From an uncultured Candidatus Sumerlaeota bacterium (lineage in GTDB: Bacteria > CAYMEV01), in assembly GCA_964389675.1 (NCBI GenBank), contig CAYMEV010000011.1:1-64000 (forward strand): a stretch of 64,000 bases of DNA, given 5' to 3'. The notes beneath the pieces were generated by a model. It saw nothing but the letters and a program-made list of their open reading frames with translations, was not told the origin of the DNA and did not search any database. Of the stretch, positions 6,517-13,007 are shown one piece after another; position 1 is the stretch's first letter; every line of letters starts with the position of its first letter. The translations under genes and the position numbers were made by a program.

Positions 6517-7653
6517 ATGATTACTAAAAGAGATCTTTTTAGGCTCTTTACTGTTTTAACAGTTGTCTTTGTAATTACATTCAGTATCTATGCCGAAACA
6601 GCTACTGAAACTGAAATACCCGAAAAAGCACAGAAATACTATCAGCAGGCCCTGGAGGATTTATCCAAAAAGGATTTTAAATCTGCAGAAAAAAACCTTA
6701 CAAAAAGCCTTGAAAATTATCCTGATTACTTTGAAGCATTGAAGGAGCTTGGAAAGATAAAAGCAATGCTTTTCCTCGGAAATGTTCAGAAAAATCCTGA
6801 ATATGAGGGTCTGGAAGGTAATCAGGCAGTTGAATACCTTAGCAAGGCAAGTTCCCTTAATGAAAAGGATTATGAAATTTACATGTTTCTGTCCCAGCTA
6901 TATACCATCGGCTATCTTGAAAACATTGAACTGGCCAAGGAAAACATAATGAAAGCGATTGCACTGGAAAAATCTGACCTCATGATGTATGATTTTGCTC
7001 TTAGCCTGATGGATCCAAAGATTGATATGGGCTATCTGAAGTGCCTGTATAAAGACCTTGTAAATATCGAACCGGAGAATATGGACAATTTAGTCCAATA
7101 TTTCAATATATGCCACTCGCTGAATGAAACTGAAGATATGATCTGGGCCCTTGAAAAGATAGTTGAGACAAATAAAGACAGCCTGCAGGATGTAAGAAAC
7201 CTTGCTGTATTATATATACAGACAAATAAAAAGGAAAAAGCACTTAAGATTCTGCCTGATCTGGTCAAGCTTGGCGATAATAACAAGGATATACTGAATG
7301 TAGCAGCCAAGGGCTATATCCAGTTTGAAGATTATAAAAAAGCACTGGATATTGTTGAGAAGCTTAAGAAGATTGATGAAAAGGATCCTGCTGTTATCTA
7401 TGACTATGCTTTTATTCTTGAAAAACTGGGAAAAACGGACGATGCATTGAAAAATTATCTTACTGTCGTAAATTCCCCGGAAAAAATAAAGAACAAAGAC
7501 CTTGCAATGAGTGCACTTATAAATCTTTACCTCGATAAGGGTGATTATAAAAACGCATACAGCTATTGTGAAAAATATATTAATGAATTTCCTGACAGCA
7601 AATTCCTGGATAAGGTTAAAACCATAAAGGAAGAAATAAAGGAAAAGCTGTAG
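6517..7653 (+). CDS. Exported tetratricopeptide-repeat protein
   Basis: Signal-peptide-like N-terminus, repeated helical TPR patterns, ends with YINEFPDS-type repeat. Confidence 0.75.
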   Translation: MITKRDLFRLFTVLTVVFVITFSIYAETATETEIPEKAQKYYQQALEDLSKKDFKSAEKNLTKSLENYPDYFEALKELGKIKAMLFLGNVQKNPEYEGLEGNQAVEYLSKASSLNEKDYEIYMFLSQLYTIGYLENIELAKENIMKAIALEKSDLMMYDFALSLMDPKIDMGYLKCLYKDLVNIEPENMDNLVQYFNICHSLNETEDMIWALEKIVETNKDSLQDVRNLAVLYIQTNKKEKALKILPDLVKLGDNNKDILNVAAKGYIQFEDYKKALDIVEKLKKIDEKDPAVIYDYAFILEKLGKTDDALKNYLTVVNSPEKIKNKDLAMSALINLYLDKGDYKNAYSYCEKYINEFPDSKFLDKVKTIKEEIKEKL

Positions 7654-7666
7654 ACTAGAACTTTTT

Positions 7667-7696
7667 GAGCTGCAGGCAAAAGCCTGCAGCTCTTTT
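7667..7696. terminator. Intrinsic terminator between convergent genes
   Basis: 11-bp stem GAGCTGCAGGC-AAAA-GCCTGCAGCTC followed by TTTT. Confidence 0.8.
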
Positions 7697-9569
7697 ACCA
7701 GAATCTCCCCCTGTAGACCTTGGGAAACTCAACCGGATTGTAAATCCTTTTTGACTGCTTCAGGCCAAAAAAACCAAAATCTATGCCATCATTTACATAC
7801 AGGCTGTCCTGTGATTCAATAAATTTATGCTTGAGAAAATAAGACAGCCCTCCAAAACTGTTATCACACTTCATAATAAATGCATTGGAATACCTGCTGT
7901 TCATCTTGCCGCCCATAATAAAGCCTATAATGCGCGAATCATACTCTGCAATCATTATATCGACATCCAGCCTGAGAAGGTCGTCAATCTTCCCCATGGC
8001 ATTTTCGGTATAATAGCTGTCATACAGGCTGGGATACTTTATGCTCTGGTCAGCCAGCCATCTTGTATAGGCTTTATCAAGCAGTATTGAGTCACCCATA
8101 TTGAATCCCCTGCATATTACAGGGCTCAGGTTCCTTCTAAACCTGTATATCTTTTTTCTTAATGCGCGAAAATGCCTGCCTTCCATTTCCAGCACATTTT
8201 TCCTTGAGTATATATATTCCCTTCCTGCAATTTCAATCTCTTTATTCTCATACTCCTCAAGCTTCAGGAGGTCACCCTCAGTCAAAAAGGATACAGCTGC
8301 CTGCCTTTCGTCGTTCAGGCTGGCTGTAAACCTGAAGAGGTCCACAAGGTCCCCGGATTCAGAAAGAGGATTTAAGAAAAGGAGGCTGATCTTTTCCTTT
8401 CCATCCTTGATCCTCCAGCTGAAGATCTGCCTTAAACCGTTAATTTCCTTTATCAGGATCCTGCGTGCCCTGCTCAGCCCGCTGAAGTAAATGAAAGGCA
8501 CATAATGAAACCAGCTGGGTTTTTCTATTTTGTCATAGACAAAGCTTCTATATAAAAGGGCATTTTCCAGATTGAAGACATTGAATACGGCTTTTCTGCT
8601 GATGAAGAGGTCTGTGTCGACAGGAAGGCTTTCCCGTATATCTGCGAAAATAGGGTCCTTGTTTTTTGAAAAAATATAGTACCTCCTATATCTGTCGCTT
8701 GACAGCTCTCCCTTAAGAAGCAGATCTTTCACCCTGCAGTTTTTTTCCTCGATGTGCATGCAGTCCCTGAACTCACAGGGGGTTTTCTCCTGCAGGTCAA
8801 AGAACTCCGGATAGCCGGACCTGATAATATCATAATCAATGCTGTTATGAGACATCTTTCCGAAACCTGGTGTATCATAAATATAGCTTTCCTTAAAAAG
8901 CCTGTACATGATCGAGGTACTTGTTGTATGAGACCCCCTCCTGGACCTGGTCAGTTTTCCGATCTTCAGATCAATTTCAGGATTGAGAGCCTTAAGAAGA
9001 GATGATTTCCCGCTCCCTGACGGACCGATAAGCACGGTTTTCTTTCCCAGTAATATATTCCTGACCTCTTTTATATTTTCATTCTTCCTGACTGAAGTCA
9101 GGATTATTTCAAAGCCAGCGTTTCCGTATGATTCGATAATATCCCTGAACTGCTCCAGGTCTGCTGCATCAGTCTTGTTGAATATTATGCAGGGATGAAT
9201 GCCGTTATAGTTTGCATGGCTTAAGACAAGGTCAAGGTAAAAGGGGTTGATATTGGGCTCAACAAAACTGAATACAGCCAAAAGCTGGTCACAATTGGCT
9301 GCAATTACCTGATTTCTGACCTCTCTGTCCCTTTTTTCAAGAAATCTTGTCAGCTCGCTCTTCCGCTTCAGTATTCCGGTGACCATATACCTGCCCCTGT
9401 TAACCTCAAGGGTACATATATCACCTGAAACTATGCTGTGTTTTGAATTTGCCTCTAAAAGCTTTCCCTTTACTGTAGCTTTTATGAGCTCATCTTTATA
9501 AAAAACACCAAGTTCCCTGCCATAGCAAGCAGATACTAATCCGGTTTCAGCTCTGCTTTTTTTCTGCAT
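7695..9569 (-). CDS. rsgA: RsgA ribosome small subunit-dependent GTPase fused to a C-terminal DUF2156 (LPG synthase C-like) domain
   Basis: aa 1-300: NKTD, GPSGSGKSS, GSHTT, DTPG, Zn motif CEFRDCMHIEEKNC. aa ~330-624: EYIY..EGRHFRALRKKIYRF and YVNDGIDFGFFGLKQSKRIYNP, matching the DUF2156 pattern. Confidence 0.85.
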   Translation of the reverse strand: MQKKSRAETGLVSACYGRELGVFYKDELIKATVKGKLLEANSKHSIVSGDICTLEVNRGRYMVTGILKRKSELTRFLEKRDREVRNQVIAANCDQLLAVFSFVEPNINPFYLDLVLSHANYNGIHPCIIFNKTDAADLEQFRDIIESYGNAGFEIILTSVRKNENIKEVRNILLGKKTVLIGPSGSGKSSLLKALNPEIDLKIGKLTRSRRGSHTTSTSIMYRLFKESYIYDTPGFGKMSHNSIDYDIIRSGYPEFFDLQEKTPCEFRDCMHIEEKNCRVKDLLLKGELSSDRYRRYYIFSKNKDPIFADIRESLPVDTDLFISRKAVFNVFNLENALLYRSFVYDKIEKPSWFHYVPFIYFSGLSRARRILIKEINGLRQIFSWRIKDGKEKISLLFLNPLSESGDLVDLFRFTASLNDERQAAVSFLTEGDLLKLEEYENKEIEIAGREYIYSRKNVLEMEGRHFRALRKKIYRFRRNLSPVICRGFNMGDSILLDKAYTRWLADQSIKYPSLYDSYYTENAMGKIDDLLRLDVDIMIAEYDSRIIGFIMGGKMNSRYSNAFIMKCDNSFGGLSYFLKHKFIESQDSLYVNDGIDFGFFGLKQSKRIYNPVEFPKVYRGRFW

Positions 9570-10719
9570 TAATCAGTTTTGGGTCAACTCTTTCAAATTT
9601 CAGCGTCCTGCACACATCGCAGCCGCTCTGCTTCAGTATTTCAATGCTCAGTTTGCCCGTTCCCGTTGCAAATATCTTATTGCATCCAGTACAGCGGTAG
9701 TATCTGATCTTTGGATTTACTTCAAAGGTATATATATCTTCATTAAATATATCGCTTTCTGCAATTATTGATCTGCTTGTCTGACAGGTAGATATCAGGT
9801 AGAGATCGCTCTGGTTTGAATACAGGGAATTCCCCTGGTATTTATTGAACCCGGGAAGAACAGACTCAATAAGCAGATTCATCTTCAGAATATCTTTCTG
9901 TATGCTCAAAAGGTCCTCGCGCATGATCCTGGGCAGATTCAAATATATCTTCCTGCCGGTACCCCACTTAAGCATTTCTACAGCCCTGGATAAAAAGAGC
10001 CTCACTCCATTTGCAGTATAGGGCGGGTCTGTGAAAACTATATCATTGATATCAAGATAAGCAGGCTCCATTTTTTCCTTAAGGTCCATATTTGTTACAT
10101 TTACAGGGTATTTATGCTTCCCTGCAATATTTGAAATATAGCATGTAAGCCTTTGATCACATTCATAAACCCTTATCCTGCATGGTATCGTTCCATTCCG
10201 GAATATATGCTGCAGGTACAGGCATATTGTGATCGAAGTGATATCATCATCACCCAGTATTGCAATATCTCTGCCAATCAGGGAATCATCAAAAAGCATA
10301 TGCTGCACTCTGTTTATCTGAGTTTCAATAGTGGAATGAGACTGATCAAGTGACCTGTCAGGCACGGGCCTTTCTTTTGAAAATTCTGAAAGCTCCCTTT
10401 TGATCTTTTCAATAACCCCTGTTTCTAATCTCAGGCATTCTGCTTTTGCATGAAACAGGTTTTCAGATAAATGGACCCCTTTTTCTGTCAGCACCAGGCC
10501 TGATGCTCTGTTTAAAATACCTGAATTTTCAAATTCTTTCCTGATTGCAGCAACAACAGGAAGAGGCAGTCTTGAAAAACGGGCGATCTCCTTTGTGGAA
10601 CCAGGTCCCAGAAAGAACAGGCAAAACAGCACTCTCCTGATACCCTCTTCCTTCTCAGCAAGCCCAATACTATCTGATATATCTTTAACTTTATAAAAGG
10701 GGTTTTCTAGATAGGACAT
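9547..10719 (-). CDS. Bis-aminopropyl spermidine synthase (BpsA/DUF43) family protein with C-terminal zinc ribbon
   Basis: RPVPDRSLDQ, ILGDDDITSI, VFTDPPYT..GVRLFLSRA, FNKY; C-terminal CTGC...CDVC. Confidence 0.82.
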   Translation of the reverse strand: MSYLENPFYKVKDISDSIGLAEKEEGIRRVLFCLFFLGPGSTKEIARFSRLPLPVVAAIRKEFENSGILNRASGLVLTEKGVHLSENLFHAKAECLRLETGVIEKIKRELSEFSKERPVPDRSLDQSHSTIETQINRVQHMLFDDSLIGRDIAILGDDDITSITICLYLQHIFRNGTIPCRIRVYECDQRLTCYISNIAGKHKYPVNVTNMDLKEKMEPAYLDINDIVFTDPPYTANGVRLFLSRAVEMLKWGTGRKIYLNLPRIMREDLLSIQKDILKMNLLIESVLPGFNKYQGNSLYSNQSDLYLISTCQTSRSIIAESDIFNEDIYTFEVNPKIRYYRCTGCNKIFATGTGKLSIEILKQSGCDVCRTLKFERVDPKLINAEKKQS

Positions 10720-10725
10720 TCAGTG

Positions 10726-11733
10726 CTATTGAAGTATCTCAACCTTGTATTTTTCTTGAAGCTCGGTAAAAAGCTCATTGACGAATTTGGATATCCTGCC
10801 CCTTTTAAGTGCATTTAAGATCTCTTCCCTTTTCTGGCCGAAATCATAAACACCCTCTCCCCTTTTATCTGTAACATAAATAATGTGATATCCAAACTTT
10901 GTTTTTACAGGTTCTGAGACTTTGCCTTTCTCCAGGCTGAAAGCAGAATCTTCAAATGGCTTCACCATCCTGCCTCTTTCAAAAAAACCCAGATCTCCGC
11001 CCTTTGATTTACTAGGGCAGTCCGAATACTCTTTAGCAATATTTTCAAAATCCTTGGAAGGATCCTTGATTTTGCCCTTTATCTCATTAATCCTTTTTAA
11101 TGCTTCTTCTTCGCCATACTTGTCAAAAGATACCAGGATATGCGAAGCCTTTACAGATTCTTTATGCTTAAATCTTTCTTTGTTGGAGTCATAGAAATCC
11201 TTGAGCTCCTGTTCTGTGGGATCGGTATAACCCCTTTCCTTGATGATCTTGTTAATTGCAAGCTCTCTGCTTATTTCCTTCTTAAAACTGTCCATGGTCA
11301 AACCCTGTTTGTTAATCAATTTTTCGAATGCTTCCATGGACTCAAAATTTTCTGTAATCTCTTTAATCCTTGTATTCAATTCCTCAGGAGACACAGCAAT
11401 ATTATTTTCAGCGATGTATAATTCAAGAACAGCATCATTGACAATTTTCCTGAGTATCTCTTTACTGTTGGCAGAAAGAACCTCCTGGGGTATATCCTCA
11501 ATCTTATGCCCGGTTAATGAAACAAGATCCTCTATCTTTTCATTAAGCTGTTTTTGTGTAATGACATCCGCGCCAATCCTCGCAACAATTTTTTCTTCAT
11601 CTTTAATAGCCTCAGTGGCCTTTTCTTCATCCTTGATTTCTTCACCAGTTTTTTCATCATTGGTTTCAGCTAAAGTAAAGGTAAACGAAAAAAATAAAAA
11701 TATTATCATACAAAAAATCAAAACTCTTTGCAT
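10726..11733 (-). CDS. Exported parvulin-type PPIase (SurA/PrsA-like)
   Basis: Signal peptide, SurA N-like region, ASHILV, YSDCPSKSKGGDLGFF, MVKPFE, FGYHII. Confidence 0.92.
   Translation of the reverse strand: MQRVLIFCMIIFLFFSFTFTLAETNDEKTGEEIKDEEKATEAIKDEEKIVARIGADVITQKQLNEKIEDLVSLTGHKIEDIPQEVLSANSKEILRKIVNDAVLELYIAENNIAVSPEELNTRIKEITENFESMEAFEKLINKQGLTMDSFKKEISRELAINKIIKERGYTDPTEQELKDFYDSNKERFKHKESVKASHILVSFDKYGEEEALKRINEIKGKIKDPSKDFENIAKEYSDCPSKSKGGDLGFFERGRMVKPFEDSAFSLEKGKVSEPVKTKFGYHIIYVTDKRGEGVYDFGQKREEILNALKRGRISKFVNELFTELQEKYKVEILQ
11591..11660 (-). repeat. Imperfect 30-nt tandem repeat (about 2.3 copies) encoding an acidic linker
   Basis: TTTTC(T/A)TCAT at 11591, 11621, 11651; encodes NDEKTGEEIK-DEEKATEAIK-DEEK. 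Confidence 0.6.
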
Positions 11734-12413
11734 AAACTTCCTCCATTATTTATTTGTAAAATTCCCGATTCAGCAAAACATTCATATATATAATTGATTG
11801 CTTCAAAATCTGAGCTTTCATCTTCCAGTTTAATATATTTGCTATAGAAAATATCGATGCTGTTTTCAGGTATATCGCAAATCACAGATATTATAAGCAG
11901 GATCTTTGCCACCATGAAATCCAGGATCAGCCTTTTTCCGGGCTGATTATTATCAAGCTTTATCATCTTCTTCTTTATTAGGCGGTTAAAAGACATTGCC
12001 CGGCTTATCCTCGATCCGGAAAGCTTATTGAAAAGTATCGAATATTCCCTGTTGACTATATGTGAAATAAGGCCGTCACTTATAAGCAGATGGTCGCTTC
12101 TGCGGAAGCTGTCATCTGTATAACCGGACTCACAGCTCTTTTCAATATTTTTTATTGATATATGATAAAGCTCGCATAGGGTTATTAATTCATCAATAAC
12201 ATCCCCCTCTAAAAGACCTGCGGGATTATTCTTCAATATCAGGAGAAGAAGAACTGATGCAGGGCTGTATTCACAGCATCCGGGCAAATGGCTCAGGCTT
12301 CCAATACCATAGTGCTCATCTAATGAAAGAAGCCTTCTGCTTTCCATCATTCTCGATATGGAATCTTTTCCCAGATCAACTTCTTCCTTGCTAAACACGG
12401 CTGAATTCGCCAT
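11718..12413 (-). CDS. Hypothetical helical protein, possibly a degenerate prenyltransferase fold
   Basis: Fills operon between bactofilin and PPIase; ATG 12413 has GGAG upstream; CELYH...RR...LLISDGL pattern. Confidence 0.55.
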   Translation of the reverse strand: MANSAVFSKEEVDLGKDSISRMMESRRLLSLDEHYGIGSLSHLPGCCEYSPASVLLLLILKNNPAGLLEGDVIDELITLCELYHISIKNIEKSCESGYTDDSFRRSDHLLISDGLISHIVNREYSILFNKLSGSRISRAMSFNRLIKKKMIKLDNNQPGKRLILDFMVAKILLIISVICDIPENSIDIFYSKYIKLEDESSDFEAINYIYECFAESGILQINNGGSLCKEF

Positions 12414-12822
12414 CAAATACTGCTCCCTCTTCAATTATGAATGTTTTTCCTTTAATACTTGAATTCACTGCACAGTTCGGGAAGAGCTTTACCATATTTT
12501 TGGCTATTATTTCCCCTCTGCATTTTCCATAGATAATGATATCCTGCGCTTCTACCCTGCCGTCAATCTGACTTCCTTCAAGGCTGACAACAGTGTTGTT
12601 GCAGATAATATTGCCTTTGAACCTGCCTGCAATAAATATTGCCTGGCTGGAGTTAATGTCCCCCTTGATATTGCATTGTCTTGATATAATGCTGAATGCA
12701 GACTCAGAATCCATTTCAGTTCTGGATAACAGCTTATTCTTGTTGATAAGGTCATCAGGCATTGTATGAAGATTTGCAGATTTAGAAAGCTTGTCAACCA
12801 TATCATTTATTTTCGAATTCAT
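12391..12822 (-). CDS. Bactofilin (polymer-forming cytoskeletal protein)
   Basis: SIIS..CNIKGDI...IAGRFKGNI...IDGRVEA..IIIYG...IIEEGAVFDG beta-helix pattern; ATG 12822 follows GAGG. Confidence 0.88.
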   Translation of the reverse strand: MNSKINDMVDKLSKSANLHTMPDDLINKNKLLSRTEMDSESAFSIISRQCNIKGDINSSQAIFIAGRFKGNIICNNTVVSLEGSQIDGRVEAQDIIIYGKCRGEIIAKNMVKLFPNCAVNSSIKGKTFIIEEGAVFDGEFSRV

Positions 12823-13007
12823 AGAACACCTCTCTGTGTTATTGGAAAACCTGCCAGCAGACACATTTTCATTTAATGATCCCAATAAAGGGATATCATT
12901 AAAAAACTATTACTAATTAATATGAAAAGCAAGATATTTTATAAACCTTAAACTGAAAGAAGCTTTTGACTTTTTATCTTATACATATATTATCTGTATA
13001 TAATTTC

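Follow-up and report, generated by a model that had tools for sequence, protein, structure and literature searches.

A BpsA-like aminopropyltransferase gene overlapping an RsgA-DUF2156 fusion gene: a probable undescribed pathway from known protein families

The window analyzed in this report is a stretch of 64,000 nucleotides (nt) from an uncultured Candidatus Sumerlaeota bacterium (contig CAYMEV010000011.1, positions 1 to 64,000). Two genes on its minus strand, together spanning 7695-10719, are the subject of this work. The upstream gene codes for a protein of the BpsA aminopropyltransferase family, and the downstream gene for a fusion of RsgA with a soluble DUF2156 domain (single-chain fusions are written with a double colon). 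RsgA is a stand-alone GTPase that checks late assembly of the 30S ribosomal subunit. We conclude that this pair probably represents a real and undescribed pathway made of known protein families. The features of the two genes are listed below. In this list, A1 is an alignment of 19 sequences of the ~390-amino-acid (aa) BpsA-like family from archaea and bacteria, and A5 is a 12-row alignment of the fusion.

9547..10719, minus strand: BpsA-family aminopropyltransferase-like gene, 390 aa (P0005); from the open reading frame (ORF), PF01861, matches to PDB chains and A1
10405..10719, minus strand: winged-helix-like N-terminal region, residues ~1-105, of which residues 38-105 align with the solved BpsA N-terminal domain
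9787..10404, minus strand: BpsA_C catalytic (Rossmann) domain, residues 106-311, with TDPPYT at 230-235; from Pfam, the genome search and A1
9595..9702, minus strand: putative C-terminal CxxC...CxxC zinc-ribbon-like segment, residues ~340-375; from reading the sequence
7695..9569, minus strand: RsgA::DUF2156 fusion gene, 624 aa (P0001), starting inside the end of the BpsA-like gene; from the ORF, Pfam and NCBIfam
8853..9569, minus strand: RsgA OB-fold (residues 1-66) and circularly permuted GTPase (66-239); from PF03193, with the genome search giving 8853-9374
8736..8777, minus strand: RsgA zinc-finger motif C265-x4-C270-x-H272-x5-C278, all four residues invariant in A5
8610..8666, minus strand: linker between RsgA and DUF2156, residues 302-320; in the model, blocks 301-320 have a predicted local distance difference test score (pLDDT) of 57-59, and 310-314 are below 50
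7698..8609, minus strand: soluble DUF2156 tandem-GNAT domain, residues 321-624; from PF09924 and a domain model with pLDDT 92.1
8127-8177, minus strand: basic helix between the GNAT halves, residues 465-481, RHFRALRKKIYRFRRNL, with 8 K/R among 17 residues and no D/E

The ORF coordinates give the two genes a common stretch of 23 nt (9547-9569), which confirms the overlap reported in a preliminary description of this DNA. Residues 1-300 of the fusion protein are RsgA, with scores of 144.7 bits for PF03193 and 174.5 bits for TIGR00157 (cut-off 100; residues 47-298). The hallmarks of RsgA are a circular permutation that places the G4 motif NKxD before G1 (GxxGxGKS) and G3 (DxxG), and a C-terminal zinc finger. 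The fusion has NKTD at 131-134, GPSGSGKS at 182-189 and DTPG at 232-235. N131, K132 and D134 are invariant in A5, and the GTPase motif residues overall are invariant or nearly so. The full-length model has beta strands at residues 8-66, and the C-x4-C-x-H-x5-C spacing is what we take to be the RsgA zinc-finger pattern. The remainder of the protein matches PF09924 (LPG_synthase_C/DUF2156) at 46.7 bits (cut-off 27.5; residues 393-617). Both domain identities that had been proposed for the fusion are therefore sound. A Pfam scan of the whole protein found only RsgA, DUF2156 and a generic P-loop NTPase, with neither the membrane flippase of MprF nor the aminoacyl-tRNA synthetase domain of ErdS.

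Membership of the upstream gene in the BpsA family was also borne out. Its protein scores 122.6 bits against PF01861 BpsA_C (cut-off 27; residues 106-311), or 123.8 bits in the genome search, and residues 38-295 align with the solved BpsA chains 2qm3 (E 1e-22) and 5xnc (E 2e-21). No NCBIfam model matched. All 31 invariant columns of A1 are kept, including GDDD (G156-D157-D158-D159, nt 10243-10254), which is found in 19/19 rows. In the accessible part of a 2026 review (PMC12979288), the corresponding GDDD of the Thermococcus kodakarensis enzyme (Tk-BpsA G157-D160) is called indispensable for positioning the aminopropyl group of decarboxylated S-adenosylmethionine (dcSAM). The N-terminal region of the window's protein had no Pfam match in its own scan; in homologues, precomputed Pfam matches to MarR and HTH_24 fall on this region.

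At the C-terminus, the same part of that review describes a flexible, free acidic tail in Tk-BpsA (E339, D342-E345) that carries the aminopropyl group. In the window's protein, acidic residues E320, D322, E327, D328 and E332 precede a conserved YT motif, after which comes the zinc ribbon; this region has no alignment to solved BpsA. The ribbon mentioned in the preliminary description is present (C343, C346, C367 and C370). That description had also asked whether BpsA homologues with the ribbon co-occur with this DUF2156 subfamily. The ribbon does not mark a DUF2156-linked subfamily and is not peculiar to this gene, since conservation of C343 and C370 reaches 90% or more in A1. Judged from conserved residues, the three catalytic modules (BpsA-like, RsgA and DUF2156) look intact.

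The relation to characterized BpsA proteins is a distant one. PF01861 E-values range from 1e-65 to 1e-108 for canonical BpsA genes of ~350 aa, and the window's gene has 1e-35. In a tree of BpsA proteins, the window's clade sits on a long branch (1.34) that is unresolved against the rest. On these comparisons, a branched polyamine is no more than a possible product, given the long branch and the distance of the characterized family members.

An association between a BpsA-like enzyme and DUF2156 also occurs in another phylum. We searched 401 diverse bacterial genomes with a profile of the domain, and 50 genomes matched. Outside the window's genus, the best match came from genome G142. It is a 702-aa chain made up of a BpsA-like enzyme followed directly by a DUF2156 domain (PF01861 then PF09924). 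Its BpsA part has the winged helix, GDDD, TDPPYT and the zinc ribbon. Genome G402, from the same small phylum, codes for a 713-aa protein with PF01861 and PF09924 that is 47% identical to that of G142. These fusions are present in both genomes of G142's family and in 0/11 other genomes of that phylum (13 in total). A search for longer relatives (684-2000 aa) of the window's BpsA-like protein found only the G142 and G402 proteins.

According to Pfam, the G142 fusion gene lies between an upstream gene for a PNP_UDP_1 phosphorylase, resembling methylthioadenosine phosphorylase, and a downstream gene for AdoMet_dc; in G402, a similar phosphorylase-like ORF upstream was read by eye only. Genes resembling infC-rpmI-rplT, seen by eye downstream of the G142 module, were dismissed as chance adjacency, as they are absent downstream in G402.

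In the 401-genome sample, PF01861 occurs in 38 genomes, mostly as canonical BpsA of ~350 aa. Only the window's genome (G000), its congener (G001) and G142 combine this family with the DUF2156 subfamily, each time with the two adjacent or fused. The preliminary description named a lack of conserved BpsA-DUF2156 linkage elsewhere as a refutation of its idea of coupling; the single chains of another phylum show that this refutation does not apply. Because the two enzymes form one chain in G142 and G402, they probably work together (the Rosetta-stone argument), and these sequences support functional coupling of the BpsA-like enzyme to DUF2156. Complex prediction for the BpsA-like protein and the DUF2156 domain scored 0.11 where the mark is 0.32, which gives no answer and is not evidence either way.

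RsgA::DUF2156 fusions recur as well. When the C-terminal domain was searched against 5.8 billion proteins, only three other clusters of similar length were found, all RsgA + DUF2156 proteins of 622-634 aa with 54-57% identity. An exhaustive HMMER search with the domain alone, against 1.84 billion representatives, gave 272 matches at E <= 0.001. Architectures were established by Pfam scans of 19 among the 150 listed matches. RsgA::DUF2156 was found in P0125 (619 aa, 42% identity), P0130 (518 aa) and P0135 (617 aa), the latter two being 28-30% identical to the window's fusion and very different in composition (rich in Arg, Ala and Gly). Two further, deeply diverged lineages thus carry such fusions. 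BpsA_C::DUF2156 was found in P0170 and P0172. Most of the rest of the 150 are stand-alone proteins of ~300 aa.

Other partners of the domain were also observed. A Mur_ligase_M domain is fused to DUF2156 in P0138, P0148, P0149 and P0167, a RimK-like ATP-grasp domain accompanies two or three copies of DUF2156 in P0126 and P0127, and P0151 is a Ser/Thr protein-kinase fusion. In P0180, a methyltransferase stands next to the DUF2156 region; its Pfam table lists methyltransferase families only, and the DUF2156 region comes from the domain search.

In a quick tree of 110 DUF2156 domains, the window's clade and P0125 form one group (support 100), and the next branch holds P0130, P0135 and one stand-alone protein. 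The RsgA label needs one change relative to the other labeled groups (support 93). In a tree of 19 RsgA rows, the seven fused RsgA parts fall together (SH-like approximate likelihood-ratio test 97) against 12 ordinary RsgAs. Both halves are consistent with one old fusion, as judged from a small outgroup sample and arbitrary roots.

In G000, nothing but the fusion exceeds the family cut-off for RsgA (PF03193), and the fusion is likewise the single match to PF09924, as the BpsA-like gene is to PF01861. The gene for S-adenosylmethionine decarboxylase (AdoMetDC) is on another contig (G000:C16, 72.6 bits), and therefore dcSAM can be made in this organism. This AdoMetDC is small (122 aa; L104 1456-1824), and its gene lies away from the BpsA-like gene and beside a 335-aa ORF. 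G000 also has two long SpeE-like frames.

The window's phylum was represented in the genome set by two genomes only, G000 and G001, both of one genus. G001 has the same two genes, which share one base and code for proteins 63% (fusion) and 60% (BpsA-like) identical to those of the window; its fusion is again its only RsgA. Metagenome assemblies add three further BpsA-like clusters, which together with the three fusion clusters of 622-634 aa have identities of 52-63%. For P0004 and P0007 alike, the longest contig measures 17188 nt, which fits, without establishing, one shared contig. DNA near-identical to the window was listed in contigs of sediment metagenomes, and no RNA data set with it was listed.

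The link to the small subunit that had been suggested for this locus is plausible, since neither of the phylum's two genomes in the set has an RsgA other than the fusion, and RsgA::DUF2156 proteins exist in deeply diverged lineages. On the sequence evidence, the connection with RsgA does not look accidental: the gene is the sole rsgA of G000 and G001, such fusions are recurrent, and the fused RsgAs group together.

Partners with a GNAT fold are common among relatives of the BpsA-like protein. To count them, we used 78 of 80 fetched loci in which the BpsA-like gene was retained, with hidden Markov models (HMMs) grown from Pfam-checked seeds. A classical GNAT is fused to the BpsA-like protein (4 loci) or encoded by the immediate neighbor (20), that is, in 24/78. 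AdoMetDC is fused in 11 loci and within two genes in 20. Among the 120 listed homologues of the BpsA-like protein, eight carry C-terminal PF00583 or PF13508 (GNAT) domains. An ORF of ~150 aa that follows BpsA-like genes of Bacillota was considered as AdoMetDC and rejected, because Pfam identified GNAT in both cases scanned. A GNAT-fold partner is thus general in the ~390-aa class, and DUF2156 is not. The window's gene pair is therefore a variant of a family-wide theme, aminopropyltransferase with acyltransferase, with a DUF2156 tandem GNAT as its acyltransferase.

Two loci have more elaborate surroundings. In G412 (Bacteroidota; L039 3341-10930), the genes code for an MFS transporter, a second RsgA (386 aa), BpsA::AdoMetDC (543 aa), a methyltransferase, a GNAT, a GNAT::methyltransferase and a methyltransferase. 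The second RsgA gene is directly upstream of and overlaps the gene for BpsA::AdoMetDC, and an ordinary RsgA is encoded on another contig. In G432, the sole other genome with BpsA::AdoMetDC among 81 of the family, no RsgA is beside the fusion. In a Paenibacillus (L025 1-11559), the genes code for a 1939-aa ORF, the BpsA-like protein, a GNAT, a HAD-type hydrolase-like protein, a PP-binding carrier and a DMFA2_C-like protein. Other Paenibacillus loci have a gene order like that of L025, which looks like a natural-product cluster.

As an account of the window's pair, we tentatively favor a pathway in which an amine is first aminopropylated and then N-acylated, and in which fusion to the sole RsgA of the cell tethers the acyltransferase to the 30S subunit. 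The BpsA-like protein would move the aminopropyl group of dcSAM, supplied by the AdoMetDC encoded elsewhere in the genome, onto an amine acceptor, most likely a polyamine. The tandem-GNAT DUF2156 domain would then N-acylate an amino group of the same molecule. A flexible linker of ~20 residues would join this acyltransferase to RsgA, so that acylation would be brought to, or controlled by, the late 30S subunit to which RsgA binds. What the sequences show directly are the identities of the domains, their intact motifs, the overlap of the genes, the conservation of the pair and the independent BpsA::DUF2156 and RsgA::DUF2156 fusions; every chemical step, the acceptor, the donor and tethering to 30S as the reason for the fusion are inferred.

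Two sets of observations weigh against this reading, one on the linkage of the genes and the other on the acyl donor. As to linkage, 35/38 genomes with BpsA_C do not have this DUF2156 subfamily. Around the best 80 relatives of the BpsA-like protein, which comprise 79 loci other than the window, searches with phmmer and a profile HMM found DUF2156 within 6 kb in G001 only. No BpsA-like or RsgA gene is present within 1.5 kb of 27 stand-alone DUF2156 genes from 27 other genomes. A metagenome scan with the C-terminal domain of P0135 gave one 3.5-kb contig that is cut inside an RsgA::DUF2156 gene (L139), and on its upstream side there is no BpsA-like gene. The tree of BpsA proteins does not unite the window's clade with the BpsA proteins fused to DUF2156. 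Also, no RsgA was detected in G142 or G402 (PF03193 at E <= 1e-10, TIGR00157 at E <= 0.001; completeness 94-95%), and therefore the BpsA-DUF2156 module does not need RsgA. BpsA-DUF2156 linkage is thus not general. The neighborhood survey that had been proposed for these genes gives a divided result, in that the families are adjacent or fused in every sampled genome that has both (3/3), but such genomes belong to few lineages (3/38 BpsA genomes).

These data bear on the view that the two genes have no joint function, that is, that the BpsA-like gene is upstream of rsgA merely by chance and that DUF2156 serves RsgA alone. Most genomes with BpsA, and most with DUF2156, do not have the two linked, and co-occurrence in three genomes is not above chance (expected 50 x 38 / 401 = ~4.7). 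However, this view does not account for single-chain BpsA::DUF2156 fusions in another phylum, for genes that overlap or abut in both genomes of the window's phylum, or for the adjacency or fusion in every genome of the sample that has both families. We assign it the smallest probability of the explanations considered here.

The second set of observations concerns the donor that the favored account assigns to DUF2156. To our knowledge, every biochemically characterized PF09924 enzyme uses aminoacyl-tRNA. The basic helix between the GNAT halves, a feature linked to aminoacyl-tRNA binding, is present in the window's protein, in which R471 is conserved in 50/50 rows (in the family, the helix has a median of 6 K/R). 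Fusions of this soluble subfamily to Mur-ligase and RimK-like ATP-grasp domains likewise point to amino-acid chemistry. The acetyl-CoA in 2HQY, the structure of BT_3689, is the remark of a single paper.

A rather unlikely reading, that of the preliminary description, keeps the module as described above except that DUF2156 would transfer an amino acid from aminoacyl-tRNA onto the aminopropylated amine to give an aminoacyl-polyamine, while RsgA would position the enzyme at the small subunit. In favor of it, the domain scores above the PF09924 cut-off, and, in the accessible parts of two papers, MprF-type synthases and fungal ErdS are described as users of aminoacyl-tRNA (PMC7334510, PMC8913301). 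A positive helix between GNAT I and GNAT II is implicated in binding aminoacyl-tRNA in what is available of the first of these (PMC7334510). Foldseek searches with the domain model found 2hqy first (template modeling (TM) score 0.78/0.83, E 6e-18), then the soluble domains of MprF (5vrv, 6lv0 and 4v36; TM ~0.64), and then the aminoacyl-tRNA-dependent amide synthases Sbb17/Sba18, which act on the small-molecule amine streptothrisamine (TM 0.53), and FemX.

The domain is nonetheless far closer to BT_3689/2HQY than to any structure that uses aminoacyl-tRNA. A 50-row profile of the domain (A4) found BT_3689/2HQY among PDB chains with E 5.3e-29 (phmmer E 4.9e-5) and no MprF chain at E <= 0.01. BT_3689 also has the basic helix, which consequently does not discriminate between donors. 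For proteins of the BT_3689 type, the only functional hints are of acetyl transfer: the accessible part of one paper states that 2HQY contains acetyl-CoA and that a Helicobacter pylori homologue is involved in lysine acetylation of the protein RNase J (PMC10700544). Moreover, sister loci have a classical acyl-CoA GNAT as the partner in the equivalent position. No feature that we examined in these sequences separates users of aminoacyl-tRNA from users of acyl-CoA. An acyl-CoA such as acetyl-CoA is slightly favored as the donor because the closest relative by profile and fold is 2HQY, for which acetyl-CoA is reported, and because sister loci have classical GNAT partners. The aminoacylation advanced in the preliminary description is unproven.

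A further explanation makes the ribosome itself the target. With the transferase docked by RsgA on 30S subunits in the course of maturation, the two enzymes would aminopropylate a protein of the small subunit or 16S rRNA, acylate it, or do both, leaving a mark coupled to assembly in place of a free metabolite. In keeping with this, the transferase is fused to the genome's only RsgA in what appears to be an old fusion, and the winged-helix-like region and zinc ribbon are both common nucleic-acid-binding modules. G412 has its second RsgA gene directly upstream of BpsA::AdoMetDC, with two GNAT genes downstream. However, G432 does not have this arrangement, canonical BpsA has the winged helix too and yet works on free polyamines, and G142 and G402 have BpsA::DUF2156 without detectable RsgA. 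We also know of no modified residue or nucleotide that would fit. Two published observations speak for it: the H. pylori DUF2156 protein is reportedly involved in the acetylation of RNase J lysines (PMC10700544), and acidic residues of BpsA itself become covalently aminopropylated as intermediates (PMC12979288). On balance, we regard modification of the ribosome as improbable.

In a broader form, to which we give the same low probability, RsgA would deliver an acyl- or aminoacyl-transferase to 30S subunits close to completion; together with the translationally coupled aminopropyltransferase, the outcome would be either an aminopropyl or acyl mark on a protein or 16S rRNA, or an acylated polyamine loaded into the decoding region. 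If true, such an assembly-coupled ribosome mark would amount to a step or checkpoint of maturation for which no counterpart is known.

A metabolic or regulatory role for the RsgA half appears very improbable. In this case, RsgA would hydrolyze a phosphorylated by-product, or would switch the transferase according to GTP and 30S availability. Such an idea is prompted by CpgA of Bacillus subtilis, an RsgA-family protein for which the accessible parts of two papers describe a second, metabolic role as a metabolite-proofreading phosphatase (PMC6449344, PMC12445079). One source labels a fused homologue of the window's protein 'ribosome biogenesis GTPase / thiamine phosphate phosphatase'. Yet the module has no call for a phosphatase, and a sole RsgA must supply the housekeeping function in any case, if the organism needs one.

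The surroundings of the pair include three more genes on the same strand and one hairpin.

10726..11733, minus strand: PpiC/SurA-type peptidyl-prolyl isomerase, 335 aa; from Pfam
11718..12434, minus strand: 238-aa ORF from the ORF list, with no Pfam or NCBIfam match
12391..12885, minus strand: bactofilin, 164 aa; from Pfam
7667..7692, no strand assigned: GC-rich hairpin with a perfect 11-bp stem and a 4-nt loop, between convergent gene ends; from folding energy

Because the three upstream genes abut the BpsA-like gene (with a 6-nt gap at the first junction and overlaps of 16 and 44 nt at the next two), the operon probably extends beyond the pair and may comprise five genes. Its 3' end had been described as a strong terminator, which is correct in part. 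The hairpin at 7667-7692 is stable, with computed folding energies of -24.4 and -23.5 kcal/mol, the former for the minus strand (z = -3.9 versus shuffles). Downstream of it on the operon (minus) strand, the sequence is AAAAAGUU, with no U-tract, and a scan for consensus terminators did not list the hairpin on either strand. It is thus not a canonical terminator for the operon strand. On the plus strand, UUUU follows the hairpin, which also closes a convergent TPR gene (6517..7653).

In the literature searched, we found no paper that deals with both RsgA and DUF2156, and none combining an aminopropyltransferase with DUF2156 among papers on polyamines, MprF and tRNA-dependent enzymes. If the favored account is correct, a sole RsgA that carries an enzyme would connect the chemistry of amines or polyamines with the maturation of the small subunit. 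Apart from RsgA, the pairing and fusion of BpsA-class proteins with GNAT-fold proteins points to an undescribed family of acylated or aminoacylated polyamines, and would give a first functional context for a large uncharacterized class of soluble DUF2156 proteins. With only two genes and AdoMetDC, the module is small enough to be tested directly.

Several known systems resemble parts of this module. The BpsA-like protein belongs to the same Pfam family as BpsA, the N4-bis(aminopropyl)spermidine synthase (EC 2.5.1.128) of T. kodakarensis and Thermus thermophilus (5xnc, 6j27, 2qm3), and shares with it the winged-helix-like N-terminus, GDDD and the TDPPYT segment, in a genome with a source of dcSAM. 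However, identity is low, and the window's protein has a zinc ribbon where Tk-BpsA has a free acidic tail. It also belongs to the ~390-aa archaeal and bacterial class, on a long branch within it, and genes of this class are often paired with GNAT and AdoMetDC genes. The uncharacterized BpsA-like::GNAT fusions and BpsA-like + GNAT (+AdoMetDC) pairs of Bacillota, Spirochaetales and archaea contain the same class of aminopropyltransferase, and in them a GNAT-fold acyltransferase is likewise fused at the BpsA-like C-terminus or encoded just after it. Their partner is, however, a single classical GNAT of ~150 aa with no RsgA, G412 being the exception.

For the DUF2156 half, the closest solved relative is BT_3689 (2HQY), a soluble tandem GNAT with the same basic connecting helix. 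BT_3689 and HPB8_1270 of H. pylori are soluble proteins that stand alone at ~300 aa, whereas the window's domain is the C-terminal half of an RsgA fusion that is translationally coupled to an aminopropyltransferase gene. The C-terminal domain of MprF and ErdS (AspRS::DUF2156) have the same PF09924 match, double-GNAT fold and basic helix, and ErdS is a precedent for joining DUF2156 to a protein of the translation apparatus. The window's fusion differs from these in having no membrane flippase or aminoacyl-tRNA synthetase domain, and a lipid acceptor like that of MprF is unlikely because the partners are polyamine enzymes. Finally, the fusion has the full set of features of RsgA/YjeQ/CpgA (OB fold, permuted GTPase motifs and zinc finger) and is encoded in single copy in its genome. 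It is distinguished from these proteins by ~320 additional C-terminal residues, which form an enzyme domain.

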